DNA of 41,925 nt, taken from assembly GCA_964474245.1 (NCBI GenBank), contig CAYYRY010000002.1, positions 2,340-44,264 of the forward strand. Reading direction: 5' to 3'. The position numbers and the translations under genes are program-made. Below the pieces are notes generated by a model. That model made no database searches. It saw only the letters and a list, made by a program, of their open reading frames with translations, and had not been told where the DNA came from. Source of the DNA: an uncultured Ruminococcus sp. (GTDB taxonomy: Bacteria > Bacillota > Clostridia > Oscillospirales > CAG-272). Of the stretch, positions 19,268 through 40,851 are shown in pieces. The first letter of the stretch is position 1, and every line of letters begins with the position of its first letter.

Positions 19268-19300
19268 TTGTCGGGTCAGATCGAAGATGATTTGAACATA

Positions 19301-22725: not shown

Positions 22726-22751
22726 TTTTCTGATCTGAAAACATAAATATT

Positions 22752-23015: not shown

Positions 23016-23121
23016 AGAATATAAGATTTTTTATATGATTGGTAGTTGTGCCCATATGTAAAAAAGTCTTACCCGGATTTATATTTTATACTGATTATTC
23101 ACGTATTAATGGGAGGAAATC

Positions 23122-25188
23122 ATGAAAAGTAATAAAACCAAGATCTGTTCGATTTTTCTGGCAGTTTTGATGCTTCTCGGCTGTGTAATCACCGTCAACG
23201 GAGCTGCAGAACACGCCAATAACAGATATAATGTTGTATTCGTAGTGGATGCCAGCGGTTCTATGTATTCAACAGACCCTGAGGATCTGAGATTCAATGC
23301 AATCAATCTCTTCATAGACCTTTTGGCTGAAACGGGAAACTATCTCGGAGGAGTTGTATTTGCGTCTGAGATAGAGGCAAAGCAGGAGCTCGCTGCCATA
23401 AACAGCCGTGGCGATAAGGATACGATCGCCAATATGCTTACTTCTATAAAAACCGAGGAGTGGACCAATACGGGTGATGCTCTTAATGCTGCAGTGGATA
23501 TCGTAGAAGGCAGCAAGAATGATCTTCCTTCTGTAATCGTGTTCCTCTGCGACGGTAAGACTGAGCTGCCTGACGATAAGGATACAGAGCTGTCTCTTGA
23601 CAAAAAGGCTGAAGCGATTCAGCGAGCAAGAGAGGGAGGTATCCCGATTTACTCAGTATGTCTCAATGCAAACCATAATGCTGACGTTTCTGAGATGGAG
23701 CAGATCTCCAAGGCTACCGGCGGTGAGTTCCGCGAGGTAAATGACGCTGCTGACCTTGTTGATGTATTCAATGCATTCTATAACTTTATCTACGGTACTG
23801 CTACAACAAAGCTCGTGGACGAAGTATTCCCCGCAAACGGAATAGTTGAAAAGGAATTTAAAGTTCCCGGTATAGGCGTAGAAGAAGTTAATATAGTTAT
23901 ATATGGAAGTGTTGCTTCTCTTGACGTCTACCGCCCTGACGGTAAAAAGAGTGAATGTCAGGGAAATAGCGGTGGTGATGAAGGAAATGCAGTAATAAGC
24001 ACTGTCAAGATCACTGACATCCAGGCAGGTACGTGGAAAATAGTAACAAGCGGAGTTCCCGGTGATCAGGTAAAGATCAACATGGTCTTCAATACTGATC
24101 TGAAGGTTGATCTTGACGTGAACAATTCCGGTGTCGGTTCATCCACGGAAGAAGACGTTACTTTCAAGGCTTCTCTCAGCTCCGGCGGCAAAACTGCTTC
24201 TACCGAGGAAGATTATTACGGCTTTTCCGCTAAGCTTCACGTGCTCAATCACCTTGAAGAGGAGCTTGACGTTATCGATATGCCTCTTAACGGTGACCGC
24301 TTTGAGCTGACACGTAAGTTTGACGAGGGTACATATAAGTTTAAGGTTACGGTATCGGGCTTCGATATCACAAAGGAGTCTGCTGTAAGCAATCCATTCA
24401 GAGTAGTAACCGAAATTCCCGAACCCGAATCAGGCGAGAGCATTGAAGACGTGAAGGATGAACTCTTCGCAAACTCTGCTCCCGTTGCAAATGCGAGCAA
24501 GGTTGAAGAGATAGTTTACATCTGGCCTTTCGTTGATTCTTCATTCAGTATCGAGCTTTCAACTCTTGCCACCGATGCAGAAGACAGCACTCTTGATTAT
24601 AAGATCGTTTCCAGCTCATTCATGGAAGGCGATTATGAAATCACCCCCGAAGGTGTACTCACCATTAACCATTTCAGCCTGTCTAAAGGAGCCTTCACCA
24701 TAAAGGCAGTGGACTCCGGAGGACTTTCCTGCGACGTTGAGATCGTAGTGATAAGCCGTAACGTTGGCCTCATGGCACTTATCGGTATCGGTACGGCGGC
24801 GATTATTACCCTTGCGGTGCTCGGCATAATGCTCTATATCCTTCTCAATAAGAGATTCATGGGTGCCTGCTACGTAACTAAGTTTGACGCAGACGGCAAC
24901 TATTACGAGGAAGTAAAGCGCGAAAAGGGTCGCGGTCGTATCCCGCTTTCCGCGTTTGGTATCGGCAATACCGGATTTGACGCTTCCAAGTGCTACTTCC
25001 AGGCGACAGGTAAGGGTCACGTTTACTTCATTACCAATAAGAATGCATACGGTAACGGTATGATCGGTAAGAAGTTTAAGATCGACGGCAGCGGATACGA
25101 TACGGATATTACCGTTGAGCAGTTTGCTCAGTCCGGAATCCGTGTTAAATTCGTAAGCCGACTCAATAATACAAACTTCACGTTCTGA
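23122..25188 (+). CDS. Exported vWA (MIDAS) domain protein with beta-rich ectodomain, single TM anchor and 113-aa cytoplasmic tail domain
   Basis: A GGGAGG RBS precedes the start, and there is a signal peptide. The MIDAS motif DASGS lies at nt 23248-23262, with downstream TNTGDAL and LCDGK. The TM segment is at about nt 24763-24846 and the tail at 24847-25185. Confidence 0.85.
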   Translation: MKSNKTKICSIFLAVLMLLGCVITVNGAAEHANNRYNVVFVVDASGSMYSTDPEDLRFNAINLFIDLLAETGNYLGGVVFASEIEAKQELAAINSRGDKDTIANMLTSIKTEEWTNTGDALNAAVDIVEGSKNDLPSVIVFLCDGKTELPDDKDTELSLDKKAEAIQRAREGGIPIYSVCLNANHNADVSEMEQISKATGGEFREVNDAADLVDVFNAFYNFIYGTATTKLVDEVFPANGIVEKEFKVPGIGVEEVNIVIYGSVASLDVYRPDGKKSECQGNSGGDEGNAVISTVKITDIQAGTWKIVTSGVPGDQVKINMVFNTDLKVDLDVNNSGVGSSTEEDVTFKASLSSGGKTASTEEDYYGFSAKLHVLNHLEEELDVIDMPLNGDRFELTRKFDEGTYKFKVTVSGFDITKESAVSNPFRVVTEIPEPESGESIEDVKDELFANSAPVANASKVEEIVYIWPFVDSSFSIELSTLATDAEDSTLDYKIVSSSFMEGDYEITPEGVLTINHFSLSKGAFTIKAVDSGGLSCDVEIVVISRNVGLMALIGIGTAAIITLAVLGIMLYILLNKRFMGACYVTKFDADGNYYEEVKREKGRGRIPLSAFGIGNTGFDASKCYFQATGKGHVYFITNKNAYGNGMIGKKFKIDGSGYDTDITVEQFAQSGIRVKFVSRLNNTNFTF

Positions 25189-25230
25189 TAAACCTGCTCT
25201 GAGCTTTATAATCTGATACAGGAGACTTCT

Positions 25231-25665
25231 ATGGAGCTTACTTTGATTATCGGATCTCTTGCATTACTGACGATCGTTATCGGTGTTGTGATTGCGGTGT
25301 CGGTGTACCGTGCAGATTCCGGTGGGAGATATATCTGTGAATGCTGTGTAAGCAGATGTGATGCAGAAGGTAAGACAAGTGAAGAAGTCAGACTGAAGGG
25401 AAAGGGCAAGTGCGTTAAGCTTTCAAAGTTCCGTCTTGGGAAAACCGAGCTCGACGAATGCAACTGCCGTTTCATGGCGACGGACGGAGACTTTGCTTGG
25501 TTTGTTTCAGACAAGAAAGTATTTGTTAACGGAACCTATGTAAATAAGATAAAGCTTAGCTGCGACGGATATCCCGTTGAGGTAAAGAAGGAACCGTCTT
25601 CGAAGGAGTGTATCTGTGTAAGATACATACGCAACTCAGGATGGACACAAAATTTTAATTTGTAA
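25231..25665 (+). CDS. Small N-terminally anchored membrane protein whose cytoplasmic domain is paralogous to the vWA protein tail
   Basis: An AGGAG RBS precedes the start, and there is an N-terminal TM segment (LIIGSLALLTIVIGVVIAVSV). The domain aligns position by position with 24847-25185 (see finding). Confidence 0.65.
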   Translation: MELTLIIGSLALLTIVIGVVIAVSVYRADSGGRYICECCVSRCDAEGKTSEEVRLKGKGKCVKLSKFRLGKTELDECNCRFMATDGDFAWFVSDKKVFVNGTYVNKIKLSCDGYPVEVKKEPSSKECICVRYIRNSGWTQNFNL

Positions 25666-25670
25666 ATTCT

Positions 25671-25702
25671 TGCATTGCCGAGGGTAAAAACTCGGCAATG
25701 CA
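25671..25702 (+). other. Perfect 12-bp intercistronic hairpin
   Basis: TGCATTGCCGAG-GGTAAAAA-CTCGGCAATGCA. No T-run follows directly; a T6 run lies about 17 nt downstream. Confidence 0.6.
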
Positions 25703-25741
25703 GGTGAAATATTCAGAAATTTTTTATTAGGAGATATAATT

Positions 25742-28700
25742 ATGTACCAGAAACTTTTGCTTAAAAATGATGGCGGTATCATTGATATTGCTCAGCAGTC
25801 CGAACAGGACAACTGTGCCGTTGTTTGTATCGGTCTCGGCGGTACCGGTGTAGACTGTCTTAAGACACTCAAGGCTAAGATCTATAACAGAGTACGTCCC
25901 GATGATCCCAATGCGGCTGTTCCCAAGTATTCTCACATTAAGTTCCTCGCTGTGGATACTGATAAGACCGGCTTGGAGAAGAGCAATGCGAAAGGCTCGG
26001 ATATCACAAAGATCAACATGGACAACGAGTTCTTTGATCTGTCCTATCCCGGAGATATCAGCAACTTCTTTAAGGCTAACGAAGGCGTTCTTGAGAACAG
26101 ACCCCATAACAAGGAATGGCTGAGACACCAGGATATCAACGTTCTTTCCGCGAAGGCAGGTGCGGGCGGTGTGCGTCAGCTCGGCAGATATCTGCTTATG
26201 GAAAAGGCCACAGACTTTGTATCCAAGGTAAGTAATCTTGTAAATCAGGCAAAGAGCGGTCTTACCAACCCCAAGACCTACATACACGTTTTCAGCGGCA
26301 TTTCCGGCGGTACCGGTGCCGGAACCTTCCTCGACGTATGCTATCTCATCCGTCAGGCACTGACCAACGATGATACAGACAGCTTCATTCTCGGCTACTT
26401 CTTCCTTCCCGACGTTAATATTGCAAACAATCTCGACAAGCAGACAGAGGCATACGTAAAGGTTAACGGATACGCTTCTCTCCAGGACCTTGACTACTGC
26501 ATGAACTTTGAGCGCAACGGTGACAAATGGTCACAGGTTTATAACGGTATCGGTCTTGTTGAAAGTCAGATGCCTCCCGTTGATATCTGCCATCTGATAA
26601 GCGCAAGAGATACAGCAGGTAACGTTATTCCCGGTGCATATAAGTATTCAATGAACGTTGTTACCGATTACTTTATGGACTTCGTTGTTAGGGTCAGCAA
26701 CAACTTCACCATGGAATCTCACATCGCCAACTATACAAATAAGAAGGCAATGATCAACAAGGAATTCGGTGCTACTTATGAGTACTGTGTTCTCGGTGCC
26801 TCCGCTGCGACCCTTCCCTTTAAGGAGGTTCTCACATACCTTGCTTCAGAGATGTTCGGCAAGTTCTCAGGTGTTCAGGACATAGTTCCCGGAAATGCAG
26901 GAACAGATGCATTTATCGCGGCAAACGGTCTTAAATATGACACTCTGTTTGCTCAGCTTGTACAGAGAGCCGATATGTCATTCCCCCTTCCCGACGTTAA
27001 GTGGGGTGACGCAAAGAATAACGACAACCTCACCGTTACGTACTTCACAGACCTTAAGGCAAAGGCTGAGGGTGTTATCGAGAGCAACTATTCAGCAATG
27101 ATCAAGGATATGGAAGGCTACGAGCCTACTGAAGGCAACGTTGATGCATCCAAATCCGTTATTACAAAAATCTATTCTGCACTCAGACTCGTTGCTGCAG
27201 ATCCTCAGAAGGGTCCCTTCTATGCGGCACACCTGCTCCGCAGCACCAGCACAAAGGACCTTATTGCCATTGTTGACGGATATATTGAAGAGGTACAGAA
27301 AAAGTATTCCCAGGAGAACATTCAGGAAGACAGACTCCGTCCCGAGTGGGAAGCATCCCAGACAGATTTCTTCAATAATGCAAGCTGGTTAAACGGCGGC
27401 GGAAAGTACGACAGATACCGCAACGCTACACGTAACCTTATCCTCCATTATACAAAGCTCACTGCATTCCAGAAGATGAAGGACTTCCTTGAAAGACTCC
27501 GCAAGCAGCTTGTAGACCTTGCCGATAACTTCATGGACGTTTTCAGAAACGTAATGAAATCCCTCATCGAAACCTTTGATGCAAACAAGCACTTCCTTGA
27601 GGAGCTTCCCGAAACAACCAACGGATATGAGTTCCCTCTTGCTACTATCAGTCAGCTTAAGGATACCCTTGACCTTACAATCAAGGAAATGGATATTTCC
27701 TCCAAGGCAACTGACTTCCTTAAGATGATGCTCAGCAAAGAAGGAGTCAAGGCTTGGATCAACAGCAATGAAAACGAGATCTACCGTGTAGTCAATAAGT
27801 ACTTCACAACTCTGTTTGCTGAGTACTCAAACAAGACAATGACAAGCTACCTCCAGGATAAGTATCACACCACCAATATGGATCAGCTTGTTATGGAGAT
27901 CCGCAATGACATTATGAATAAGCTTGACCAGAACGCAAATCCCATGTTCTGGACATCCACAGGTTACTCTATTTCAACAGCATCCCATATCGGATACGTA
28001 ACATTCCCCAACGTTTCTACTGAGGTTGATCTTGCTGCTCAGCAGCTTGCTGCATCCAAGCAGACAGGTGAGCTTACCGTAAGAAACAGCACTATTCAGG
28101 ACAGAATTTCCATTATGCGCTGTCTTGTCGGTGTTCCTCTGTTCGGTTATCAGGGTCTCCTTCAGTATGAGGACTCTTCAATCGGAAGCCCCATCATCGG
28201 TAAGCATCTCTATGAGGGTAAGCTCTATACAAACGATGAAGGTAAGAGCGCAACAGGACGTGACTGGAGATTCCTTCCCTCCCCCGTGCCGCTCAGCAAG
28301 ATGAACGCCAGCAACAACAAGGTACTCAGAGATAAGGCAGAAGCTGCTAAGGAAATTTATGAGCTTGCCGAAAAGAAGAATATCATAGCTCAAACTGCTC
28401 CTGATAACTACGGTATCTTTGTAATCAGCGCCGACTTTATGAAGAAGATATACGACGCACGTGATGCTGCTAACGGAAAGACCAAGGTTGAACAGCTTGA
28501 GGCTATCGCTGCAATTAAGGAGCTCATGGAAAGCATTGAGTACGAGCCTAAGAAGGTCGCTATCCCCAATGACGGTGCTACCTCACTTCCTGAGATGAAT
28601 AAGCGAATTATCAGAATCGACCACTTTGCATCATCAATCAAGCTTCAGGAAATGGTAAAAGCTGAAGTTGCAAAGTTCGAAGAGATCGACAAGATCATCG

Positions 28701-29137
28701 CTGAACTTGAGCCTAAGGAAGACAAGGATCTTGTCTCTTACCAGAACGGTATCTTTACCGGTGTTATCAAGATCACAGGTCCCGTAGTTAAGGTTGAAAA
28801 TGAATTCGGTGAGGAAACAGAGCTTTCCGCACCTGCTCATAAGCCTTGCGGTGCGATCCCGCTTTATCAGGCATTCCTCAACTTCAAGAAGCTTGACGCT
28901 GACACCCGCGCATACGTTGCGGAAGAGGCACAGAAGATTCTTGACGTATATCCTCTCAGCGACGATGCTGTAAAGGCGTGCAAGGTTGTATGGGCTCAGC
29001 TTAAGAACATTAAGCTGTTCGTTCAGACTGCTACAAAGATCTGTCCTCATGAGGTTGCAGACCTTAAGAAGTTCCTTCCTGAGCTTAAGGATGCACTTCA
29101 GGTATTTGGTATGACTTATTTTATTGACCTTGAATAA
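25742..29137 (+). CDS. Giant tubulin/FtsZ-like GTPase (Tubulin_2-type), 1131 aa
   Basis: AGGAG RBS. A T1-like loop CIGLGGTG lies at nt 25832-25849, and the tubulin signature SGGTGAG (within HVFSGISGGTGAGTFLDV) lies at nt 26306-26323. A long, mostly helical extension of about 800 aa follows. Confidence 0.8.
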   Translation: MYQKLLLKNDGGIIDIAQQSEQDNCAVVCIGLGGTGVDCLKTLKAKIYNRVRPDDPNAAVPKYSHIKFLAVDTDKTGLEKSNAKGSDITKINMDNEFFDLSYPGDISNFFKANEGVLENRPHNKEWLRHQDINVLSAKAGAGGVRQLGRYLLMEKATDFVSKVSNLVNQAKSGLTNPKTYIHVFSGISGGTGAGTFLDVCYLIRQALTNDDTDSFILGYFFLPDVNIANNLDKQTEAYVKVNGYASLQDLDYCMNFERNGDKWSQVYNGIGLVESQMPPVDICHLISARDTAGNVIPGAYKYSMNVVTDYFMDFVVRVSNNFTMESHIANYTNKKAMINKEFGATYEYCVLGASAATLPFKEVLTYLASEMFGKFSGVQDIVPGNAGTDAFIAANGLKYDTLFAQLVQRADMSFPLPDVKWGDAKNNDNLTVTYFTDLKAKAEGVIESNYSAMIKDMEGYEPTEGNVDASKSVITKIYSALRLVAADPQKGPFYAAHLLRSTSTKDLIAIVDGYIEEVQKKYSQENIQEDRLRPEWEASQTDFFNNASWLNGGGKYDRYRNATRNLILHYTKLTAFQKMKDFLERLRKQLVDLADNFMDVFRNVMKSLIETFDANKHFLEELPETTNGYEFPLATISQLKDTLDLTIKEMDISSKATDFLKMMLSKEGVKAWINSNENEIYRVVNKYFTTLFAEYSNKTMTSYLQDKYHTTNMDQLVMEIRNDIMNKLDQNANPMFWTSTGYSISTASHIGYVTFPNVSTEVDLAAQQLAASKQTGELTVRNSTIQDRISIMRCLVGVPLFGYQGLLQYEDSSIGSPIIGKHLYEGKLYTNDEGKSATGRDWRFLPSPVPLSKMNASNNKVLRDKAEAAKEIYELAEKKNIIAQTAPDNYGIFVISADFMKKIYDARDAANGKTKVEQLEAIAAIKELMESIEYEPKKVAIPNDGATSLPEMNKRIIRIDHFASSIKLQEMVKAEVAKFEEIDKIIAELEPKEDKDLVSYQNGIFTGVIKITGPVVKVENEFGEETELSAPAHKPCGAIPLYQAFLNFKKLDADTRAYVAEEAQKILDVYPLSDDAVKACKVVWAQLKNIKLFVQTATKICPHEVADLKKFLPELKDALQVFGMTYFIDLE

Positions 29138-29223
29138 ATCTTAGGGGTCACGTTCAATAATGTGCGCCTGTCGAGCATTTGTTGGATGTGACCCCGCACA
29201 TTTTATATTCTGAGGAGAAACTA

Positions 29224-31134
29224 ATGAAAACTGTAAAGGAATTAATTCATGCTTCTACCGCATTGCTTACAAATAACGGTATAGGAAGCTCTAATTATTC
29301 AAAGCCCAAATATCCTACCTGCGTTGTTTATTTCGGCAAGCGCAGTCAGCTTTATCATGATGAGCTGATCGGAGATGTTACCCGCGGTTGGGGCGGAAAC
29401 ACCGATTACGTAAAGTTTTATGTGATTGAGGATGTGGAAAGCAAGGTTCTGAAAAACGTACTTAGCGGAGAAGAGCTTTCCGATGAGGACGTCCGCGCGC
29501 AGATCACCGGACTGCTTTCTTCTCAGGATGTGTTCTCCGATATGAGATATGTGTCATTATACTGTGTTATGGATACCACGGATATCAAGGATGTTTCTGA
29601 ATTTGAAAAGTGGTATATGTCAGTGCAATACCTTGAGAAGCTCATAGGTGTTCCGACAACATCAATGCTGATGCTCATACTGAATCAGTCTCTGAATCTG
29701 GCTGAAAATGCGAAGCTTATCACGAAAAAACTCGGAGAGCTTTATGCTTCACCGGAGCTCGGCAGAGAAAATACACATATATATGACTCTGTATTTATTC
29801 TCAGTAACAGACTTAAGGACGGCTCCTTCAAAATATACGACCCGCAGATGGACGGCAACGCTTCTTCCACTCTTTCTTATAAGAACTTTAATCTGCTCGG
29901 CAACGTGATATTGCTCTCAAATACGAGGGATCCTGATTTTGATTCGAGAAAGCACAAGCTTTACGGGAACGATAAGCCTGCGGTCATTGCTTCATACCGT
30001 TATTTGCAGAAGCCTATGAAAGAGATCGTAATGATCGCACTGTCAAGTATCCTCGAGAAGCTTAAAGAGATGATCCTTACATATAATATTGATGCAGATA
30101 TACTTGGAAAGGCACTGAATATTACCTCAGGCCGTTCAAAGCTTCATGAGGAGATCTATACTTCGATCAAGGAGTATCTCCCCAATAATGATTTTATCAA
30201 TTATCTCCCCGGTAAGAGAGAGTCCGTCGGCAGTTTTGTTGACGTAGACCGTTCATCCTATGGATGTCTTCAGATGTTCATTGAGCAGAACCATCTGAAG
30301 ATCGTTAAAGAAAAGCTTGCATCAAACAAAGAATACGAGTACAGGACCATAGTATCCATGCTTTCAAGTAATCTTAATGCTGCTCAGCTTGTTAACGGAA
30401 TTCATGCAGACGTCAGAAAGACCACATACAGTAATGCAGAAATGGGTCTTGCCAACACTGACAGAATGAATGTTTTCCAGAGCATAGACATACAGGTAAA
30501 GCAGATGATCGCAGATGAGCTCAAGGTTCTGATAGACAAAGCCATATCTCAGTCGATTGATAAAGCAACTATGTGTATGGATGCATTCAGAGCACTGTGC
30601 GTTGAGTTCGAAAATGCATATGCGGTTGGAGAAGAAGGTACCCGCAGAAATCTGAAGAGCTTTTACGTTGATAAGATCAACAGATACTACAGTGATATCA
30701 ACAAGGTAAAGGCACTGCTTGTAAAGCTTCTTAACATTGATAACGGTAAGACGGAAATGCTTCAGGTATTAAACGACGAGCTTGTTCGTTTGTTTGAAAG
30801 CGATGCCGTATATAAGTATTCATATGCTCAGGAGCTTATGGCGCGTCTCGGAAGAGCAGGAAATGAACGTGAGATTCAGGAGCAGATCGCAAAGGAGCTT
30901 ATTGAAGGTCTTGAGAACCGCACCTGTTACTACACTAATTCCACGTATCACGGAAGAGTTATGGAAGCATATATGCTCAACACCTCCGATAATGAGGACA
31001 GCTTGACAGTTAAATACCTCAACGCCCGTTCCGATGAAGGTGGAATTACAAGAACGTTCTTTAACACCTGCAGCAACGATGCTGCTGAATCCATGTGGTT
31101 CTATCATTGTACACTTGATAACCTGTTAATGTAA
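29224..31134 (+). CDS. Unknown 636-aa protein, possibly a degenerate (nucleotide-loop-less) paralogue of the tubulin-like GTPase
   Basis: A GAGGAG RBS precedes the ATG at 29224; the track start at 29179 is a TTG inside a hairpin. The weak collinear resemblance is VVYFGKRS vs VVCIGLGGTG, LYCVMDTTD vs HVFSGISGGTG, and SVFILSNRLKDGS vs ICHLISARDTAGN. Confidence 0.55.
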   Translation: MKTVKELIHASTALLTNNGIGSSNYSKPKYPTCVVYFGKRSQLYHDELIGDVTRGWGGNTDYVKFYVIEDVESKVLKNVLSGEELSDEDVRAQITGLLSSQDVFSDMRYVSLYCVMDTTDIKDVSEFEKWYMSVQYLEKLIGVPTTSMLMLILNQSLNLAENAKLITKKLGELYASPELGRENTHIYDSVFILSNRLKDGSFKIYDPQMDGNASSTLSYKNFNLLGNVILLSNTRDPDFDSRKHKLYGNDKPAVIASYRYLQKPMKEIVMIALSSILEKLKEMILTYNIDADILGKALNITSGRSKLHEEIYTSIKEYLPNNDFINYLPGKRESVGSFVDVDRSSYGCLQMFIEQNHLKIVKEKLASNKEYEYRTIVSMLSSNLNAAQLVNGIHADVRKTTYSNAEMGLANTDRMNVFQSIDIQVKQMIADELKVLIDKAISQSIDKATMCMDAFRALCVEFENAYAVGEEGTRRNLKSFYVDKINRYYSDINKVKALLVKLLNIDNGKTEMLQVLNDELVRLFESDAVYKYSYAQELMARLGRAGNEREIQEQIAKELIEGLENRTCYYTNSTYHGRVMEAYMLNTSDNEDSLTVKYLNARSDEGGITRTFFNTCSNDAAESMWFYHCTLDNLLM

Positions 31135-31165
31135 TTGCAGAGCCGTAGGCTGAATGGAGATTGAT

Positions 31166-31819
31166 ATGATGAACGTAAAATTAGTTGATTTTGATAACGA
31201 ACATTACGTTGCAAGTGTTACTCATACCGAAGGTACACTTCAATGGAGATCAGCAGGTAATACTCATCAGATAATCATTCGCGGTGAGTTTGGTGCTGAT
31301 ATTAATTTCGGAGATAAAGAGAAGACGGTCCTTGAACAGTACACAAAGGAGCAGTTCGAAGCGGAAAGAGAGACCAATTATGCCGATGAGCTGCACCTTA
31401 CCATAGTAAAAAAAGGTACGTTTGTGGATAGTTATAACGTAACGGTAACCCCCGCTACGTATGCTGTAATCGGATGCAGCTATGAGCCCGAGACAAATAC
31501 CATTACAGTATATATTCCCACACAGGATTGCCTGTACCAGTGTAAAGTATTCTCACAGGTATCAGTAAGGATCACGCAGGAACCCATAAAGAAAAAGTTT
31601 CTCGGAATTTTCGGTAAGGATGAGAAGCCGTATTATACAATACATATTCCTCCGATCCCCGGATACGTTGACGGAAGTCTTAAGTATACTTTCGACGGCT
31701 GCAAGTATGAGTATCCTATAACCAAGGCAATGCTTGGTCAGAACGTAAGTGTTCCCGCATATAACGGTAAAGCTCCTAAGATAAATGTTTCGGAGAAGAA
31801 CGGCTATAAGATCATATAA
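31166..31819 (+). CDS. Unknown beta-rich 217-aa protein
   Basis: A GGAG lies 6 nt upstream of the ATG at 31166. The gene is tightly packed in the operon. No family was recognised. Confidence 0.55.
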   Translation: MMNVKLVDFDNEHYVASVTHTEGTLQWRSAGNTHQIIIRGEFGADINFGDKEKTVLEQYTKEQFEAERETNYADELHLTIVKKGTFVDSYNVTVTPATYAVIGCSYEPETNTITVYIPTQDCLYQCKVFSQVSVRITQEPIKKKFLGIFGKDEKPYYTIHIPPIPGYVDGSLKYTFDGCKYEYPITKAMLGQNVSVPAYNGKAPKINVSEKNGYKII

Positions 31820-31836
31820 GAAAGAGAGACAAAAAA

Positions 31837-33408: not shown

Positions 33409-33460
33409 ACCGAAGCATCGATTTTAATTATTAACTATATTACAGGAAAGGATAATTAGA

Positions 33461-35824
33461 ATGAAATATCAGCAGATATGTTATACAAGACTGAATGATA
33501 TCGTAGGCGGAACGCAGGTAGGATTTACAACCTTTAATTCTTCTCCTGATATACCTGAAGATGTTGTCGAGTATTTCAAAGGAACACAAAGTGGTAACCA
33601 GGGCGAGAAATGGCCGATAGACAAAGGTCAGGCTGTTGTCTGGCAGTTTGTTGCAGACGAAAAAAGCAAAACCGTATTTAATACAAGAGTTCTCTTCGAT
33701 ACAGCACTAAAAGACGATAAAGACAAAGACAGTCGCGGAACCATATTCTCTCACTCATTCATATTTCCCATGGAGGATTTCATAAGAGATCCCCAAAGCG
33801 TGCTGAACGTGGATGACAGCAACTATGGTTTTGACCGTAAAAGCACAGAGACTATTCCGCAGGAGCTTGTAAGAACCGAAACTCTTTCTCTTGAGGAATG
33901 CGTTGAATCTTTAGGTATGGATTCAAAAAGTTACTCAAAGCTTGTTTATGCTGTATATAAGTTCCTGACCGATAAAGCCAATAAACCTCTTCATATTATC
34001 TGCGATAATTCAAATGAGAGTATCATCAGGTACATGGTATGTATTTATGCGGCACTTCCGTTTGAATTCAGAAAGAAAATAACTTTCCAAAGCAGCAATA
34101 TCGGAAGAATTCACACTATCAACAGAACGATAATCTTTGAAAACGAATTAAGTAATTACAATGATTATTATATTGAGCCTGTTTCCTCCGAAAACAACTT
34201 TATGACCACCGCTGTGGAGAAAAAGATATCCAAGTACGATTTTATAAAAATCGTGCCTGAAAATTATGCATCAGGTCAGAATTTTGATGAATTATTCAAA
34301 GCCATAGCAAATAAGCTCGCTCTGTTTGACAGTGCAGCGACCACAAAACTGGAGCTTTATAAGATTGCGTACAATTTGCTTCTGGATGACACCAATGACG
34401 GTTCGGTAATGACACCGGAAGATCTCCAGGATCGCTTATATGAATTGCTTCTTTCGGTAGACCATCCGTTTATTGACAGACAGATCCAGTTTGTGCTCGG
34501 TGATATCATAGAGTACAAGTTTGATCTCAGTGATGCCATCGCAGAGGTGCTCGGCCGTAAGCTTGCAGTAACAGAGGACAGAGATCTTCTCGAATGCGGT
34601 TACAGATACAACTTCGGCAGAATCAGCAGAATGGATATTGATGAAGGCGTAAAGTATCTGAATGACGTATACGGAGACCGCACGTCTGAGGCATTCATTC
34701 AGATAAGGTCACTTCTCAATGAAGACGATAAGGGCAAAGAAATTCTGTCACGATTCTATACCAAGTACGTTGCCGCTGAAGTCGTAGCTGACAGAGATAA
34801 TATAATCGCTTTCTATGACGAGACCAAGGATCTTGCAGACAGAAGTAAGGTCGTGCTGTCCATAGAGAATTTTGTCCGTGTATATCTGAAGGCAGAGGTA
34901 GAGCTTACCGATGACCCCAAAGCGCTGCTTGCTGAAGCAGAATATATACTGTCTCAGGTTCTTGCAGATCAGCCGGATATGTGTGCAAAGATCTTAGAAT
35001 ATGTAAAGCTTCTATATTGGAATAACCTTAAGTTTGAGAACATAAGCTTTGCTCCCGACAGCGGTTATGAAGGCGTGCGTCTCGATAATAATAAGAAGTG
35101 CAATATAGTGTTCACTCTTATCGATATCTTCGAATACTTCAAGAATTCAGATATTGTAAGTCTTGCTCCCGTTGTAAACACATTCAAGCCCTCTGAGCTT
35201 GGATTAGGACAGTCCGAGTATGCCGTCGCAATTCAGAAGCTTCATAATGAATGTATTGCATATATCAATGCATACGGAGATTCAAATGCGGATATGGACA
35301 GATGGATACTCGTATCATTGCCGCTTGTTTACATTAAGAAAAGCCCGGCATCATTCTTAATTGACAACAATATCGTATCCGTATGCGAAAACTTCGAGGA
35401 AGCCTACCTTAACTCTGCTTTCCTGAGCAGCGAAAACAATCACGAGCTGTTCAAGGGATGGATGGAGCAGTATGCCGATGCAAAGCTTGAAAACTCTGAG
35501 ATCGCTGCAGAGATTCTCAAAACGATCAAGATGAACGAGAAGAGAATTGAAAATGAGAGACGTCAGGCGGCAAAAGAGTACAAGAAGGCAGAGAAGGAAA
35601 GAGCAAGAGAAGAAAAAGAGCTTCTGAAAGCACAGAAAAAAGCTGAAGCTGATGCTGAAAAGCTTGAAAAAGAGCGTCAGAAGGCTGTTCGTAAAAATGC
35701 TGAGTCAGATCCTTTCAATACAGAGGACACTACTGAAAAGCCGAAGTCGATATTCAATAAGCTGTTTGGCGGTTTAAAACAGAAAAAGAATAACGACGAC
35801 GATTTCGGAGGAAATGAAGATTGA
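33461..35824 (+). CDS. 787-aa protein with GAP1-like (GTPase-associated protein) N-terminus and a K/E-rich coiled-coil tail
   Basis: The N-terminal pattern MKYQQICYTR...GG.QVGFTTFNSS resembles, from memory, the QL.YTS...G..GFQ start of GTPase-associated proteins. The C-terminus is a charged heptad-like segment (ERRQAAKEYKKAEKERAREEKELLKAQKKAEADAEKLEKERQKA). Confidence 0.5.
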   Translation: MKYQQICYTRLNDIVGGTQVGFTTFNSSPDIPEDVVEYFKGTQSGNQGEKWPIDKGQAVVWQFVADEKSKTVFNTRVLFDTALKDDKDKDSRGTIFSHSFIFPMEDFIRDPQSVLNVDDSNYGFDRKSTETIPQELVRTETLSLEECVESLGMDSKSYSKLVYAVYKFLTDKANKPLHIICDNSNESIIRYMVCIYAALPFEFRKKITFQSSNIGRIHTINRTIIFENELSNYNDYYIEPVSSENNFMTTAVEKKISKYDFIKIVPENYASGQNFDELFKAIANKLALFDSAATTKLELYKIAYNLLLDDTNDGSVMTPEDLQDRLYELLLSVDHPFIDRQIQFVLGDIIEYKFDLSDAIAEVLGRKLAVTEDRDLLECGYRYNFGRISRMDIDEGVKYLNDVYGDRTSEAFIQIRSLLNEDDKGKEILSRFYTKYVAAEVVADRDNIIAFYDETKDLADRSKVVLSIENFVRVYLKAEVELTDDPKALLAEAEYILSQVLADQPDMCAKILEYVKLLYWNNLKFENISFAPDSGYEGVRLDNNKKCNIVFTLIDIFEYFKNSDIVSLAPVVNTFKPSELGLGQSEYAVAIQKLHNECIAYINAYGDSNADMDRWILVSLPLVYIKKSPASFLIDNNIVSVCENFEEAYLNSAFLSSENNHELFKGWMEQYADAKLENSEIAAEILKTIKMNEKRIENERRQAAKEYKKAEKERAREEKELLKAQKKAEADAEKLEKERQKAVRKNAESDPFNTEDTTEKPKSIFNKLFGGLKQKKNNDDDFGGNED

Positions 35825-37287
35825 ACGTAGATAAATTGATGGAGACCGGCAATGTGTATTACAGTCTCTGCAGTGGGTATAACTTCTATGTTTTGGCATC
35901 ACGTCAAAAGTATAAGATATTCGGAAAAGAAAAGAACGTTATACAGCACATAAAAACAGGTGAGTATTTTTATGTTTCTGAGTTTCCTGAAGATCTGAAT
36001 CGTACTTTTGACCTGAATTACTGGGTCAAACTTATTAGAAATCCTGTTGACTTAAAACATTTCATATGGCCGGTAGACGTAATTGAGTGGGATGCGACAG
36101 ACAAAAATAACGTGAAATACGCCCTTGTATTCCCGAATCGTGCGCTTCCTGTTTATGATGATTTTGCAAATACTTTAAAAAACGGTATGGATGTCAATTT
36201 TGACGTTCCGTGGGTGAGAAAGATCATCAAGGATTTTCTTGATGCTTGGTGTAATTTTCATTCCAAGGGATATGCATATCATGCATTTTCCAAAGGAAAT
36301 ATGTTCTATAACCGTGATAAAATGGAGGTTATGTTCGATTTCAGCTTCCTGACTCAAAGAACAGACACCCTCTATGAGAAAAAGTTTATCAATCCGGAAT
36401 ATATTACCCCCGACTATGCGGATCCGTATTACTATTATAAGCATAATGCTAATCAAATGGACCTCGCATCGGACTATTATACCGTAGCAGTATTTTTGTT
36501 CAAGCTGTTGATCGGACGTCTTCCGTATGAGGGTAAGGTATTTGATAACGTTGCGAATACTACCGAAACAGAGCATAATACCTGGATAAAAAGATATCAT
36601 AAGAATTCGTATTTTATCTTTGATACGAAAGATGATACTAACCGTATCGGCGGTGAATTCGGATTTGCTGATGAGTTGGTATACGAAAACCGTTGGTTGG
36701 GACTTTCGGAAAACGTCAGAAACATGTTCCATAACGTATTCCAGACAGCCAATGCTCTCAGAACGACAGAAGAATTGTACTATTATACTCCGAAGCAGTG
36801 GCTGGATGCATTGTTTGGAGAGACGGATGATGTTCCCCTTCACTACAGAGAAGCTCAGCTTGAGGAGGTAACGAAAATTTCAGTGCCTCTGAAGACCTCG
36901 GTACCAAGCAAAGTCAGTGTTCCGAAAAAGCCTGAGATCCTCAAAAAGGTAGCTCCCGTTTCCCCTGCTAAAAAAACGTCTGCGGAACCCGAAGTAAAGG
37001 TTACTGCCAGCCCTGTAGCTCCTAAGCCTCAGCCCAAGGCTCAGCCTGCGTCCACCTCAAACGAGTCGGAACCTAAGCAGACAGAAGTGAAGTTTACTCC
37101 GGTATTTCCTAAATCGGATACTTCATCTGAAGTTGATGCCCGCCGTAAGCTGATTTTCGATCTTAAATCAAAATTAGATGCTGTGAAAACGCCTGCTCCG
37201 ATGACCGAGGAAGGCAAGGCGCTTTTGACGAAAATGGTAACAATTCTTAATACGGCTATAAAATCCGGTAAAATTGCTAATAAGTAA
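35821..37287 (+). CDS. Protein-kinase-fold protein lacking the catalytic Asp (predicted pseudokinase) with a P/K/A/S-rich disordered tail
   Basis: The start overlaps the upstream stop (TTGA); the alternative ATG is at 35839. FHSKGYAYHAFSKGNMFY (nt 36277-36300) takes the place of H.DLKP.N. FDFS (36334-36345) takes the place of DFG, and DLASDYYTVAVFLFKLLIGRLPYEG resembles subdomain IX-X. Confidence 0.6.
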   Translation: MNVDKLMETGNVYYSLCSGYNFYVLASRQKYKIFGKEKNVIQHIKTGEYFYVSEFPEDLNRTFDLNYWVKLIRNPVDLKHFIWPVDVIEWDATDKNNVKYALVFPNRALPVYDDFANTLKNGMDVNFDVPWVRKIIKDFLDAWCNFHSKGYAYHAFSKGNMFYNRDKMEVMFDFSFLTQRTDTLYEKKFINPEYITPDYADPYYYYKHNANQMDLASDYYTVAVFLFKLLIGRLPYEGKVFDNVANTTETEHNTWIKRYHKNSYFIFDTKDDTNRIGGEFGFADELVYENRWLGLSENVRNMFHNVFQTANALRTTEELYYYTPKQWLDALFGETDDVPLHYREAQLEEVTKISVPLKTSVPSKVSVPKKPEILKKVAPVSPAKKTSAEPEVKVTASPVAPKPQPKAQPASTSNESEPKQTEVKFTPVFPKSDTSSEVDARRKLIFDLKSKLDAVKTPAPMTEEGKALLTKMVTILNTAIKSGKIANK

Positions 37288-37296
37288 AGCCCTATG

Positions 37297-37379
37297 CTTG
37301 TTTACATAATAAACAAGAGAGGTATGACTGACAACAAAATTTTAAGGTGTTTATGAGACTGCTTCAGGGTAGTCTCATA
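37297..37379 (+). other. Two perfect hairpins in the 134-nt gap after the kinase-like gene
   Basis: CTTGTTTA-CATAA-TAAACAAG lies at 37297-37317 and TATGAGACT-(10 nt)-AGTCTCATA at 37352-37379. Neither has a T-tail. Confidence 0.5.
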
Positions 37380-37421
37380 GGCACAACGAAAATACTGCCA
37401 AAGTGCAGAATGGAGAGAAAT

Positions 37422-38537
37422 ATGGATTTCGGAGCTATAACCAACCGAATTACAAAAAACCGAATTGGGAATTACGAAGCCAAAGACGGTTCTGCAGTAA
37501 GTGTCCAGCTGAGAAATTTGATAGCACAGCATGGCTACGATATATTCAAGGATAAGACTGCTCTGACAGAAGAAATACAGAAGTTCACGCTGTCAAACAC
37601 ACTGAAGAGTCAGCTTACCCTGGTTTTCAGTTGCAGTACGCTTTCTGATTTTATTCTCAATTCCAAGTCAGACCTGAATATGGTCGATATCGATAACGTT
37701 GTTCACAGTGTTGTATCCTCCACAGGATTGACTTACGACTGTGCCATTTCAATAATCGCTGATACTTTTGATGCCTGCGGTTTGAGATTCGCAATAGAAT
37801 ACGGTCCCAAATTGGTAGACGGTACCGTGAAGAACGGACTCTCAGCAATGATGCCTTCGGGCGTGGCTGAAGCTGAGATCAAAAAGACTCAGGAAATGTA
37901 CAACAAGTTTAATTCCACCTACGCTAACGGTATTCAGATAGCGCAGAAGGAACAGGCAAAGAATGAAGCCACAGCGGTCGTAAACGCAATGAACCGTCTG
38001 TGTTCCGCAGGGCTTGCGGAAGGCTATTATTTGCTTGGCAGATGCTATGCTTTTGGAGAGTGTTGTACCAACGTGGATTCCAAAAAGGCACTTGAATATA
38101 TGAAGATAGCTGCAGATAAGGGCCACGTAGCAGCAGCCGGATATCTTGGTGATATGTATTATGAGGGAGATGCGTTTACCAGAGACTATACCCTTGCTCA
38201 TCATTACTATACCCGTCCCGGCACCAAGGCGCTCGGTAAAAAGCAGCAGGATGCCCTGAAGGATATCTATAAACAGGGTGGTGCAAACAAACTTACCATG
38301 ATATTCTCCGGTATCGTGTTTGCACTTATGATCGCTTTTGTTGTGTTCTTCCACGAAGGCATCTTCTCAGGCTCAAGCAGACTGGTAGTAGGCATTATTA
38401 TGCTTGTTTTGTCACTGGTGCCTCACGTAATTGTGATTCAATACAGTATACTTAATAAATATAACGGTATGCGTTGGCTTCTTATGATACAGTTCTTTAT
38501 CTGGGCACTGTATGCGTTTATTTTGGTTCTTGCATAA
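37422..38537 (+). CDS. Sel1-like-repeat protein with three C-terminal TM helices
   Basis: I prefer the ATG at 37422, which has GGAGAG upstream. Sel1-type repeats are AGLAEGYYLLGRCYAFGE...ALEYMKIAADKGHVAAAGYLGDMYYEG...LAHHYY. Three hydrophobic helices lie at the C-terminus. Confidence 0.7.
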   Translation: MDFGAITNRITKNRIGNYEAKDGSAVSVQLRNLIAQHGYDIFKDKTALTEEIQKFTLSNTLKSQLTLVFSCSTLSDFILNSKSDLNMVDIDNVVHSVVSSTGLTYDCAISIIADTFDACGLRFAIEYGPKLVDGTVKNGLSAMMPSGVAEAEIKKTQEMYNKFNSTYANGIQIAQKEQAKNEATAVVNAMNRLCSAGLAEGYYLLGRCYAFGECCTNVDSKKALEYMKIAADKGHVAAAGYLGDMYYEGDAFTRDYTLAHHYYTRPGTKALGKKQQDALKDIYKQGGANKLTMIFSGIVFALMIAFVVFFHEGIFSGSSRLVVGIIMLVLSLVPHVIVIQYSILNKYNGMRWLLMIQFFIWALYAFILVLA

Positions 38538-38545
38538 TAGGGGGA

Positions 38546-40162
38546 ATGAAAATGACACAACTGAAACACATTAAAAATTTGGGAATCAGCCTTGTTTTTG
38601 CGGCGATTCTGATCTACGTACTCATTCTCAACCCCTCAACAGTAGGCTTGGTTTCAGCAGTAGTTGCAATCGGTCTGCTTCTTCTGATCGCATTTGCATT
38701 TAACAAAAATCAGATGGTCGTTCAGAAGTTTGATATGTACATATTAGTCACCTTTTTTGGCTATTACGCAATCAACTACCTGAATATGATAGAGACCTTT
38801 TCCGCAAACGTATTTGTGGGATCAATGGAGAATTACGAGGCTTTCCAGATCATATTGCTGATCGTCTCGATAATCCTTGGACTGGTGTTCAATGCAATAG
38901 GCGAAAACAGAGTAACAACGATCGCTAAGGTTATATTCAAGACCATCGGAGTATTACTCCCACCTATGGGATTATCCGTCTTTTGCTGGGGAGGCTTCTC
39001 AGCAAGTAATCTTGAAGCTCTTCTGTTTATCGGCGTTGTATGTGCGCTGATCGCATTTGCAAGAGGCGTCAGAACTGGTGATGCCACTGAGATCAGAAGA
39101 CCCATGCGCATAGCGTTGTGGCTTGGTATTTTTACTGTTCTGATATCGGTATTCTTCCCGTACTATGAGATCGATTCCCGTTATTTCATATCATATTTTT
39201 CATCAATACTGCTTAGATGGTATATAGTACTGATCCTTTCACTTATCTTGCTTTCAACTATTGTCATCGGAATAAGACAATCCAACAATAAGGTTGATAC
39301 AGACGGTTTGTTTTTGATCGGTCTTCTCGGCCTTCTCTGGGTAGCTAAGGCGGCTGTGTACTTCTACTTCATCTTCAGCTGGATCGCAATATGTGTATAC
39401 CTGGTCTTAATGATCGGCTTCTTCAACCGTTTTGCCAAGCGTAAAAACAACAATTCCGCGGAAGTATCCCTTTACTCATCAATCGGTAAGAATGAGTTCT
39501 GGTGGATCATAATTGCAGCAGTAAGTATCGTCGCAGCAGTGTTCTTTATCAATAAGGGATACATATTCTTAGCGCTGTCACTTGGTATCGGTGCATTTGT
39601 TGTTTCGCATATTCATAAATTGGTTACAGGCTGGGTAAGCGAAGCCGTATACTGGGTATCTCTACTGTTTGCCGTTGCGTTTTCTGCGTGTATGTTAGCC
39701 GTACAAAACGGCTACAGCCCTGTCAAGATAGGTATTATCGCTGCACTGTTTATTTTCTCAGCTATCGTTATGGTACTTCTGTGTCATAATAACTCTATCG
39801 GTAAGAATAAGTTCAAAGCAGGCAAGATAGCAATGGTGCTCGTATTTGCATTACTCGTAGTAATTCCCGCATACAAGGGCGGATCTCATATCGAGATGGA
39901 GATATATGACGGCGACGGAAGTTATGATCCTGCGATATCTTTCGAAGCGGTAGCGGACGGCAAGAATAATGAAATTGTCGGTATGAGATACGTTTGGTCA
40001 GATTCCTTTATGTACGATCAGGGTGCCATGACGGTATCCTCCTCCAATGACGAGTATATGATCATTGAAAACAGACATTTGATAGTTTGGACAATGGACA
40101 GCAACGGCATTGAAACAAGAAGTGACTATTGGTTTGCTCCGGATCATTTACCCCATCGATAA
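38546..40162 (+). CDS. Polytopic (about 12 TM) membrane protein with a roughly 100-aa soluble C-terminal domain, unknown function
   Basis: It starts 8 nt after the Sel1 gene stop, at ATG 38546 or 38552. There are successive hydrophobic helices. No transporter family was recognised. Confidence 0.7.
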   Translation: MKMTQLKHIKNLGISLVFAAILIYVLILNPSTVGLVSAVVAIGLLLLIAFAFNKNQMVVQKFDMYILVTFFGYYAINYLNMIETFSANVFVGSMENYEAFQIILLIVSIILGLVFNAIGENRVTTIAKVIFKTIGVLLPPMGLSVFCWGGFSASNLEALLFIGVVCALIAFARGVRTGDATEIRRPMRIALWLGIFTVLISVFFPYYEIDSRYFISYFSSILLRWYIVLILSLILLSTIVIGIRQSNNKVDTDGLFLIGLLGLLWVAKAAVYFYFIFSWIAICVYLVLMIGFFNRFAKRKNNNSAEVSLYSSIGKNEFWWIIIAAVSIVAAVFFINKGYIFLALSLGIGAFVVSHIHKLVTGWVSEAVYWVSLLFAVAFSACMLAVQNGYSPVKIGIIAALFIFSAIVMVLLCHNNSIGKNKFKAGKIAMVLVFALLVVIPAYKGGSHIEMEIYDGDGSYDPAISFEAVADGKNNEIVGMRYVWSDSFMYDQGAMTVSSSNDEYMIIENRHLIVWTMDSNGIETRSDYWFAPDHLPHR

Positions 40163-40168
40163 TCTTGT

Positions 40169-40214
40169 ATTCGCAAATAAAAAATGATTGCCATTCGCAA
40201 ATAAAAAATGATTG
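40169..40214 (+). repeat. Tandem direct repeat, 2 x 22 nt (ATTCGCAAATAAAAAATGATTG), 24-nt period
   Basis: The copies lie at 40169-40190 and 40193-40214 and are identical. They sit immediately upstream of the lipoprotein gene RBS. Confidence 0.9.
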
Positions 40215-40224
40215 AGAGTAAATT

Positions 40225-40767
40225 ATGAAAAGGATAATTAAAATTACGGCTGTAATTCTTATTCTTGCTGTTATGGCAACATTGATGGCGGGATGCGAAG
40301 CTGATGAGAAAAAGCCCGGACCCGAAGTCGGAAAATGGCACGCGGAAGTAAAGATCAAGGATCTCGGAAGCTCCATGTCTGATGAAGATAAGGCTATTCT
40401 TGCAATGCTTGCGGGTAATATCATGTTTGAGGTAGACGTAGAGTTTGCCGAAAACGGTACGTTTTCGTATTTCATGAATACAGATAAGCTTGAATCAGCC
40501 GTATCCAATTCGTTTACAACTATTTTAGGCTTTATGCTCAATTTCGACATATCGCTGTTTGTAGATAGGATCGTTGAAGCGGTGTTGCAGGATATGATAA
40601 AAACGTCCAATTATGCATTTTCCGGTGAATATGCAACGTCTGAAAGTGAACTGATCACTGCCACCGATTCATCCGGCTTCAACATATACTTTAAAGTATA
40701 TGGCGGTAGCTTGGTACAGGTAAATGATAACGGTGATAAGATACTGACCTTTACAAAAGCTGAATAG
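40225..40767 (+). CDS. Putative lipoprotein, unknown function
   Basis: A signal peptide ends in the lipobox LMAGC. GAGAG lies upstream of the ATG. Confidence 0.65.
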   Translation: MKRIIKITAVILILAVMATLMAGCEADEKKPGPEVGKWHAEVKIKDLGSSMSDEDKAILAMLAGNIMFEVDVEFAENGTFSYFMNTDKLESAVSNSFTTILGFMLNFDISLFVDRIVEAVLQDMIKTSNYAFSGEYATSESELITATDSSGFNIYFKVYGGSLVQVNDNGDKILTFTKAE

Positions 40768-40775
40768 CACAAACA

Positions 40776-40806
40776 AAGAGGCTGACTTGATCAGTCTCTT
40801 TATTTG
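40776..40806 (+). terminator. Intrinsic terminator ending the first cluster
   Basis: AAGAGGCTGA-CTTGA-TCAGTCTCTT forms a 10-bp stem with one G-U pair. TATTTG follows. Confidence 0.65.
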
Positions 40807-40851
40807 TAAAAGAATATTCACACGTTTGAATAGAATTATGGTATAATATCA

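Follow-up and report, generated by a model that had tools for sequence, protein, structure and literature searches.

A probable FtsZl1-vWA type gene cluster with a DO-GTPase/GAP1 pair and a kinase-fold module in an uncultured Ruminococcus sp.

The DNA analysed here, referred to as the window, is a stretch of 41,925 nucleotides from an uncultured Ruminococcus sp. (contig CAYYRY010000002.1). It contains a cluster of eleven open reading frames (ORFs) at 23122-40767, all on the + strand. In order, these encode an exported vWA protein (V, ORF1), a small protein with one transmembrane (TM) helix (t, ORF2), a tubulin-like protein (T, ORF3), two proteins designated 4 and 5 (ORF4 and ORF5), a GTPase with Zn ribbons (G, ORF6), a GTPase-associated protein 1 (GAP1) protein (P, ORF7), a kinase-fold protein (K, ORF8), a Sel1-repeat protein (S, ORF9), a polytopic membrane protein (M, ORF10) and a predicted lipoprotein (L, ORF11). 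An earlier reading made from the letters of the window (the sequence-only reading) had described eleven co-directional ORFs with gaps of 8-134 nt or overlaps, one promoter upstream and one terminator downstream. This layout is borne out. With revised starts the gaps are 8-134 nt with one 4-nt overlap (ORF7/ORF8), a promoter-like site precedes ORF1 and a terminator-like hairpin follows ORF11. Nearly all of the domain assignments (vWA, tubulin-like, Zn-ribbon GTPase, GAP1, kinase fold, Sel1) also hold in Pfam searches and by motif reading. Five of the eleven products (V, t, S, M and L) are membrane-anchored or exported, and ORF2, ORF4, ORF5, ORF10 and ORF11 are without a Pfam family.

Homologues of ORF3 (1150 at E <= 1e-5 among 8000 candidates scored) come from Clostridia, some Bacilli and Actinobacteria and fall into two groups by length, near 1130 aa and near 1000 aa. 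A pattern scan of one genome per species, covering 185,579 species genomes, gave 247 relatives, and 78 loci were kept. ORFs were called in all kept loci, and iterative hidden Markov model searches were seeded with each window protein. The core order V-T-4-5-G-P, with one to four T paralogues, is essentially invariant. Among non-redundant loci whose downstream sequence reaches at least 7.5 kb, 55 of 59 have 4-5-G-P directly after T and the remaining four show split ORFs; V is upstream of T in all loci compared (58/58). The order is kept in about 60 species, across two phyla and with differing flanks. Since gene order is conserved, the cluster is not a chance juxtaposition, and by this comparison of loci it is a functional unit, as the sequence-only reading had assumed when it named gene-order conservation as the test.

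The cluster very probably belongs to the group of FtsZl1-vWA operons, also describable as the tubulin-containing GAP1-N2-type DO-GTPase system. FtsZl1 was defined by Makarova and Koonin 2010 (Biol Direct 5:33; PMC2875224), with MIDAS-vWA proteins, diverged Zn-binding GTPases, frequent protein kinases and lineage-specific families as operon partners. The gene set listed there for Brevibacillus brevis is vWA(597)-FtsZl1(1129)-B8(782)-vWA(424)-B9(211)-GTPase(421)-B5(832), and similar sets are listed for Clostridium kluyveri and Ruminococcus lactaris (PMC2875224). V-T-4-5-G-P of the window agrees with the B. brevis listing in order and sizes; ORF4, ORF5 and ORF7 correspond to B8, B9 and B5 by size and position only, not by alignment to the 2010 sequences. 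The window also has the MIDAS-vWA, Zn-binding GTPase, kinase-fold and membrane proteins of these operons, and T has the N-terminal GGGTG-type signature, the coiled coil and the helical C-terminal region. The differences are that the internal 424-aa vWA gene of B. brevis is absent and that the window adds t, a pseudokinase, the Sel1/TM protein, the polytopic protein, the lipoprotein and a trailing second tubulin.

DO-GTPases and GAP1 were defined by Kaur, Burroughs, Iyer and Aravind 2020 (eLife 9:e52696; PMC7159879), with these GTPase-centric conflict systems split by type of GAP1-N. The GAP1-N2 tubulin theme is confined to Firmicutes and Actinobacteria and comprises two tubulins with coiled coils, extracellular vWA proteins and a GAP1 with a polar extension at its C-terminus (PMC7159879). 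The distribution found here (Clostridia, Bacilli and Actinobacteria) agrees with this. So do the Zn-ribbon DO-GTPase with a Walker-B Glu, the GAP1 gene directly downstream of it, the two tubulin genes (ORF3 and a second paralogue, T2, downstream of ORF11), the extracellular vWA and the polar GAP1 extension of the window. Of the two vWA genes in the published Firmicutes form, one is a YtkA fusion and the other is multi-TM with an extracellular vWA, and two GTPase genes are found in 38% of the published systems (PMC7159879); since only 38% have two, the single GTPase gene in the window is still allowed. The vWA protein of the window differs from the published form in that it has a signal peptide and only one TM helix and that neither YtkA nor fn3 was matched, and K-S-M follow GAP1. 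The published kinase theme is actinobacterial, with an active kinase and PP2C and no tubulin link, whereas the kinase of the window is degenerate.

Two statements of the sequence-only reading therefore fall: the system is not undescribed, as its core is already in Makarova and Koonin 2010 (PMC2875224) and Kaur et al. 2020 (PMC7159879), and the combination of tubulin, Zn-ribbon GTPase and GAP1, said to have no characterised counterpart, is covered by both papers, which that reading itself had named. The locus is an increment to knowledge of a known predicted system rather than a new kind of system. Full-text literature searches and PDB searches found neither an experimental study nor a solved structure of it.

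NTPase switches or kinases are combined with vWA proteins also in the MoxR-vWA ternary conflict systems and the TerY-P (vWA-kinase-phosphatase) triads described by the Aravind group. The window likewise pairs an NTPase switch with a vWA and variable partners, and a vWA with a kinase fold, but it has no MoxR AAA+ ATPase or PP2C, its vWA is extracellular and its kinase is degenerate.

Table 1. Coordinates of the cluster genes and of associated features in the window.
Feature	Position	Strand	Remarks
jag terminator	22752-22787		Inside intergenic region 22726-23121, 5' of the cluster
Candidate sigma-70-like promoter	22987-23015	+	TTGACA-17-TAGAAT; 11/12 consensus positions; consensus match only
V (ORF1), exported vWA protein	23122-25188	+	Signal peptide, vWA, beta-sandwich domains, one TM helix, tail
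t (ORF2), small one-TM protein	25231-25665	+	Tail paralogous to V TM segment and tail
T (ORF3), FtsZl1/Tubulin_2	25742-29137	+	1131 aa; PF13809
Protein 4 (ORF4)	29224-31134	+	636 aa; directly after T; corresponds to B8 by operon position
Protein 5 (ORF5)	31154-31819	+	221 aa; small conserved protein; B9 by size and position
G (ORF6), Zn-ribbon DO-GTPase	31837-33408	+	PF19993
P (ORF7), GAP1	33461-35824	+	GAP1-M; directly downstream of G
K (ORF8), kinase-fold protein	35821-37287	+	Degenerate active site; Pkinase, sub-gathering
S (ORF9), Sel1-repeat protein	37422-38537	+	About three C-terminal TM helices
M (ORF10), polytopic membrane protein	38546-40162	+	About 12 TM helices; some 90 C-terminal aa form a domain outside the membrane
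L (ORF11), predicted lipoprotein	40225-40767	+	Lipobox LMAGC (aa 20-24)
Terminator-like hairpin	40769-40807	+	3' of ORF11; followed by UUUAUUUGU (U-rich tract)
ORF between terminator and T2	40851-40979	+	42 aa
Promoter-like site of T2	40987-41016		
T2, second FtsZl1/Tubulin_2 paralogue	41107-41925	+	5' part, 273 aa; cut by window end; own ribosome-binding site

The vWA domain of V (Pfam VWA, E = 5.5e-16) has an intact MIDAS, DASGS at aa 43-47. It is followed by immunoglobulin (Ig)-like beta-sandwich domains at about aa 230-540 and by a single TM helix (aa 550-575); the cytoplasmic tail (aa 576-688), about 110 aa long, is conserved. Beta-sandwich families are matched throughout the V family, mostly Hemicentin-GBD-like (19/23) and also Big_9, Filamin, PKD and Cadherin_4. 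YtkA gave no match in the V or ORF5 families. The tail of ORF2 had been called paralogous to that of the vWA protein, and the comparison of ORF1 551-677 with ORF2 1-132 agrees, at a hhalign probability of 98.4%; in an all-against-all hhalign comparison of the families, the ORF1 tail and ORF2 are the only detectably related pair inside the cluster. Judged from this match, t is a lineage-specific duplicate of the V TM segment and tail. Small t genes are present in only about three loci.

T matches PF13809 Tubulin_2 over residues 28-373 (E = 3.8e-60). Its architecture is an FtsZ-like two-domain core at about 25-380, coiled-coil helices at about 507-621 and alpha/beta C-terminal domains. The glycine motifs GLGGTG (31-36) and SGGTGAG (188-194) show little or no variation among 24-45 relatives. 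The loop CMNFExNGDKW (254-263) after the core helix is conserved and bears acidic residues (E257 and D261), which makes it compatible with a T7-like activating loop. The AlphaFold2 (AF2) model of ORF3 has a pLDDT of 84.7 and a pTM of 0.71; it shows helices at 507-546 and 552-621, followed by alpha-rich domains that include some strands (pLDDT 80-93). Foldseek places FtsZ, CetZ, tubulin and TubZ at the top of the matches to the model (lowest E 5.6e-6; TM(target) of about 0.5 over about 350 columns). Because the N-terminal 350-380 or so residues align to entire FtsZ chains, both FtsZ domains seem to be present. T thus resembles FtsZ, TubZ, CetZ and tubulin in its core, its T1 and T4 glycine loops and the conserved acidic residues after the core helix. 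It differs from them in an identity of 10-14%, in about 750 extra residues and in the lack of an FtsZ_C or Tubulin_C Pfam match and of a sequence-level PDB match. Nor is it linked to division or plasmid partition genes, and polymerisation of T is only predicted.

The sequence-only reading had let the system end at 40767. It reaches past that point, because the second Tubulin_2 paralogue begins at 41107. The T4 loop of T2 is CGKTGSG, compared with SGGTGAG in T. A tubulin after M, as in the window, is also found in locus L010; in Ruminococcaceae AB4001 the gene after M encodes a tubulin of about 970 aa, and next come a Zn-ribbon protein and a Sel1 protein ahead of unrelated cell-wall genes. One to four T paralogues per locus occur in many loci. 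Three to four tandem tubulins, usually between V and the main T, were seen in L008 (Bifidobacterium callimiconis), L028, L053, L055, L060 and L079; the tandem copies suggest repeated duplication of a polymer subunit.

Proteins 4 and 5 have no Pfam or PDB match, and no sequence-level PDB relative was found for GAP1 or the GTPase either. The ORF4 family has 236 cluster representatives among 1.84 billion proteins, essentially all of about 620-670 aa; a word-indexed homologue search for ORF4 gave only 7 sequences. The AF2 model of ORF4 is poor (pLDDT 62.6). By eye the N-terminus resembled decayed T1/T4 loops, and ORF4 was considered as a degenerate second tubulin; this was rejected, with a hhalign probability of 1.3% and values below 30% in the all-against-all comparison. 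Foldseek gave nothing at E <= 0.001 for ORF4, and the top match, a LeoA dynamin at TM 0.15, is not credible. The ORF5 family is present in 70 loci, and ORF5 is strand-rich as judged by eye only.

ORF6 matches PF19993 DO-GTPase2 (E = 5.1e-14) and, with less strength, DO-GTPase1 (E = 1.9e-5). The G1/G3/G4 motifs and Zn ribbons ascribed to it before were found again: the Zn ribbon as CPYC (8-11) and CPHC (153-156), G1 as GITRAGKT (176-183), the Walker B with its Glu as DIAGE (260-264) and G4 as SKGD (334-337). YDIAGE, GITxAGKT, SKxD and CPYC...CPHC are kept across 45 G relatives. ORF6 has extra C-terminal Cys-x2-Cys Zn ribbons (about aa 459-508; window 33211-33360), a lineage-specific insertion; most relatives have a single short CPxC...C..C element at this place. 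The GAP1-M match of ORF7 (E = 1.2e-5) reaches 25.9 bits against a cut-off of 24, and a polar K/E-rich C-terminal extension covers about aa 699-787. In the ORF7 family GAP1-N2 is matched in 9 of 23 members (best 7.8e-5) and GAP1-M in 5 of 23, and GAP1-C was not detected in the Pfam profile searches of ORF7 and its family.

The kinase-fold protein had been described as lacking the catalytic Asp, and ORF8 indeed reads YHAFSKGN (153-160) in place of HRDLKPxN and FDFS (172-175) in place of the DFG region. The Pkinase match (E = 7.9e-6) is under the gathering score and the PD-T4-6 matches are weak. The features of an active Hanks-type Ser/Thr kinase (HRDxKxxN, DFG and the N-lobe Lys) are missing from ORF8. 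In the family alignment most relatives retain the Asp but have His and Arg instead of the catalytic-loop Lys and Asn; the consensus is YxD[FI]HLSR and there is no conserved N-lobe Lys. The C-terminal tail of K is P/A/K-rich and of low complexity. The K family is present in 45 loci and S in 37, always after K; the Sel1 match of ORF9 has E = 6.7e-10. A co-directional polytopic membrane protein comes after S in 23 of 28 loci, and ORF10 itself can be aligned in only 7. L is lineage-specific, with homologues in only 2 loci. TM and lipobox readings agree with the closing membrane trio (Sel1-repeat protein, protein of about 12 TM helices, lipoprotein) of the sequence-only reading.

An extra kinase-family gene upstream of V was observed at L049:5390-6451, L069:5421-6749 and L070:4249-5574. 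Of these three, the L069 gene has catalytic-loop motifs of a more canonical look (QDVNAGN ... CDNDN), which the genes in L049 and L070 do not show. Strong matches to the PD-T4-6 model occur in two members of the upstream flank set (best 2.7e-39), not mapped to particular ORFs.

Two alternative tails follow the core. One is K-S, usually with the polytopic membrane protein after it; K-S comes behind the core in 18 of those loci whose downstream sequence is at least 9.9 kb long. The other is V2 (about 390 aa), in which a MIDAS vWA is flanked by TM helices at the N- and C-terminus and which takes the place of K-S-M. The order V-T-4-5-G-P-V2 corresponds to the published Firmicutes description. Going by gene order, the K-S-M arrangement of the window is a common sister subtype, V-T-4-5-G-P-K-S-M, with an extra module that was not found described for the tubulin theme. 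The V2 order was recorded in L025, L030, L031, L033, L038, L040, L042, L043, L046, L049, L052, L060, L062, L065, L068 and L070. Identity is only 22-26% for the accessory proteins where it is 32% for T, and the hosts are mainly gut, rumen and oral anaerobes. The sole record outside Firmicutes and Actinobacteria among the 78 loci is L045, labelled Tidjanibacter massiliensis (Bacteroidota); as the contig (12.6 kb) comes from a binned assembly, the record may reflect mis-binning and not a real transfer.

The mechanical starts of ORF4, ORF9 and ORF10 are probably too early. The preferred start of ORF4 is 29224 (mechanical 29179), where there is a GAGGAG ribosome-binding site and where a database gene call of 636 aa concurs. 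The preferred start is 37422 for ORF9 (mechanical 37347) and 38546 or 38552 for ORF10 (mechanical 38474). The promoter-like site upstream of V is the best such match in the roughly 19 kb scanned (22500-41925). The hairpin after ORF11 has a folding energy of -17.9 kcal/mol (z = -5.3), a value reached by none of 200 shuffled sequences. An Rfam scan found no leader RNA in the 396-nt intergenic region upstream of the cluster.

Upstream of the cluster lie rnpA-yidD-yidC-jag and other housekeeping genes. Among the annotated Jag loci, mnmE comes after jag in four and rsmG in two, and none of 80 metagenomic loci with Jag relatives has the system. The cluster is taken as an insertion because the jag loci of relatives have mnmE or rsmG next and are without the system. 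Its GC content is 43.0%, compared with 47-49% upstream, and the GC content at third codon positions is 0.457 versus 0.523 (p = 8e-4). In composition and position the block suggests an accessory, horizontally acquired island. The flanks vary between species: 145 ORFs in them match 107 Pfam families. For 50-odd loci the three genes closest upstream were compared with Pfam and PADLOC; they are heterogeneous and mostly housekeeping, with two integrases and scattered PADLOC-model matches, and the scan is not decisive. In one metagenomic locus (L001:1696-7259) the system adjoins a tyrosine integrase with CTD6, MC2 and AAA_23 genes, and in Butyrivibrio sp. AE2032 (L002:1501-7738) it adjoins TIR_2 and PARG-like genes. 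These two contexts point towards conflict or mobile elements but are not shared by the loci in general.

The reading favoured overall, with a probability of roughly 0.5, is that of a described gene system in which a GTP switch gates tubulin-like assembly under a receptor, with a role in conflict or surveillance. Within it, a switch-gated, membrane-proximal assembly of the tubulin-like protein appears somewhat probable from the domains encoded, and a conflict or defence role is proposed more tentatively, as a possibility. The DO-GTPase/GAP1 pair would form a nucleotide switch or threshold, which would control whether the tubulin-like protein assembles with proteins 4 and 5 under the receptor tail, the scaffolds at the membrane being the pseudokinase and the Sel1 protein. 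What the vWA senses at the surface, such as a ligand, phage or damage to the envelope, would in this way be coupled to a cytoplasmic polymer. The polymer itself would be the output, because no enzymatic toxin is encoded, and the role would be a conflict or surveillance response carried by an accessory, horizontally acquired island. Such a role, in line with Kaur et al. (PMC7159879), is slightly favoured since the distribution is sparse, the block resembles an island, the paralogues are expanded and the accessory proteins evolve fast. Sequence data alone do not separate the conflict, membrane-remodelling and adhesion readings.

Several results weigh against the favoured reading. On the side of a conflict role, the homologue survey proposed in the sequence-only reading showed that the same neighbours co-occur and gave no clear defence-island signal in the upstream flanks of the 50-odd loci. 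The PADLOC check proposed along with it failed to match the locus to a catalogued defence system; PADLOC-DB v2 assigns no system, with weak PD-T4-6, PglW and Csn2 domain matches only. Carriage by phages was rejected, the system being absent from phage records, with one distant relative in 2.9 million viral contigs. Carriage by plasmids was also rejected, with only three distant FtsZl1 matches, on Thermus and Meiothermus megaplasmids. No recognisable toxic effector was found among the cluster products. On the side of the polymer, the fold match of T is only moderate (TM about 0.5), the T6-H7 region of FtsZl1 is not alignable and filament formation was doubted by Makarova and Koonin (PMC2875224). 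As to membership in the GAP1-N2 systems, GAP1-N2 was not found in ORF7 of the window at E <= 0.01, there is one vWA gene compared with two in the Firmicutes form, and fn3 gave no match in the V or ORF5 families, a component of rapidly evolving fibronectin type III (FNIII) repeats being said to define these systems. The beta-sandwich matches of V may, from their family assignments, represent the same module as the published FNIII repeats.

For the K-S-M subtype the favoured reading can be extended to an outside-in signalling device, an elaboration that is unlikely to be right in all its parts. A signal arising from a ligand or from damage would pass from the MIDAS vWA to the tail and on to the pseudokinase/Sel1 scaffold and the DO-GTPase/GAP1 switch, which would license tubulin polymerisation at the membrane; ORF2 would be a co-receptor or decoy. 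The polymer would be the effector, for example through division arrest or through envelope sealing or remodelling during phage attack. If true, it would be the first polymer of the tubulin family in bacteria to be gated by a receptor, and a prokaryotic analogue of integrin-to-cytoskeleton coupling.

The best surviving alternative, somewhat unlikely on balance, is a machine for membrane remodelling or vesicle biogenesis in normal cell biology, in which an FtsZl1 polymer and membrane proteins would reshape the cytoplasmic membrane, the GTPase and GAP1 would provide timing and the vWA would be a wall anchor. This is the original published prediction of Makarova and Koonin (PMC2875224). The share of membrane-anchored or exported products (5/11), the positional conservation of the polytopic membrane protein and the predicted FtsZ-like fold of T are consistent with it, as is the lack of a toxin and of a defence-island signal. 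The distribution is however very sparse (247 relatives in 185,579 species genomes), the cluster is inserted into a conserved jag-mnmE/rsmG neighbourhood with deviant GC, the accessory proteins diverge fast and the T paralogues are expanded. A sparse, inserted and fast-diverging cluster suits an accessory trait better than core cell biology.

Focal adhesions in Myxococcus gliding combine MglA/MglB, MreB and CglB, the last being a vWA adhesin. By analogy the cluster could encode an integrin- or focal-adhesion-like surface device, in which the vWA would bind a ligand of the host, of mucus or of a neighbouring cell, and the GTPase switch and polymer would position the adhesin from inside. The topology of V, with an extracellular MIDAS, an Ig-like stalk, one TM helix and, inside the cell, a short conserved tail, is in line with such a device, and so are the gut, rumen and oral hosts and the joint encoding of a GTPase and its partner with a cytoskeletal protein. 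There is however no homology to the Myxococcus proteins, the likeness being architectural only, and no sortase, pilin or other adhesin hallmark; the sister subtype moreover swaps K-S-M for a second vWA among TM helices, which is not an obvious adhesin design. An adhesion device is improbable. That eleven unrelated genes share one strand by chance has practically no probability, since the only point in its favour is the few detectable homologues of ORF10 and ORF11 in other loci, against a V-T-4-5-G-P order found in essentially every locus with enough sequence, in two phyla and between different flanks, and an ORF4 family of essentially one protein size (about 620-670 aa, 236 representatives in 1.84 billion proteins).

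FtsZl1/Tubulin_2 is the most divergent branch of the tubulin superfamily, predicted about 15 years ago and still without an assigned function. The locus is a compact gut-Firmicute example, complete save for the truncated T2. It is a reasonable candidate for reconstitution, because the nucleotide-binding motifs in both GTPases and the MIDAS site are intact. To the published descriptions the survey adds the invariant core V-T-4-5-G-P, the two alternative membrane modules (K-S-M and the multi-TM vWA protein) and the apparent behaviour of the block as an inserted accessory island.

Two further observations concern the window outside the cluster. The sole Rfam match is a tRNA-Glu gene (anticodon CTC) at 18175-18249 (+), upstream of rnpA in a stretch (18000-19390) of low GC content and few ORFs; the gene is 5 kb away from the cluster, for which it is no obvious integration site. 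Near the start of the window, positions 1001-3000 have a low GC content (37-39%) and contain unassigned ORFs at 1340-1654 (-), 1642-2013 (+) and 2063-2575 (+). This stretch sits between FakA-like and PHP-domain genes and may be another small insertion.

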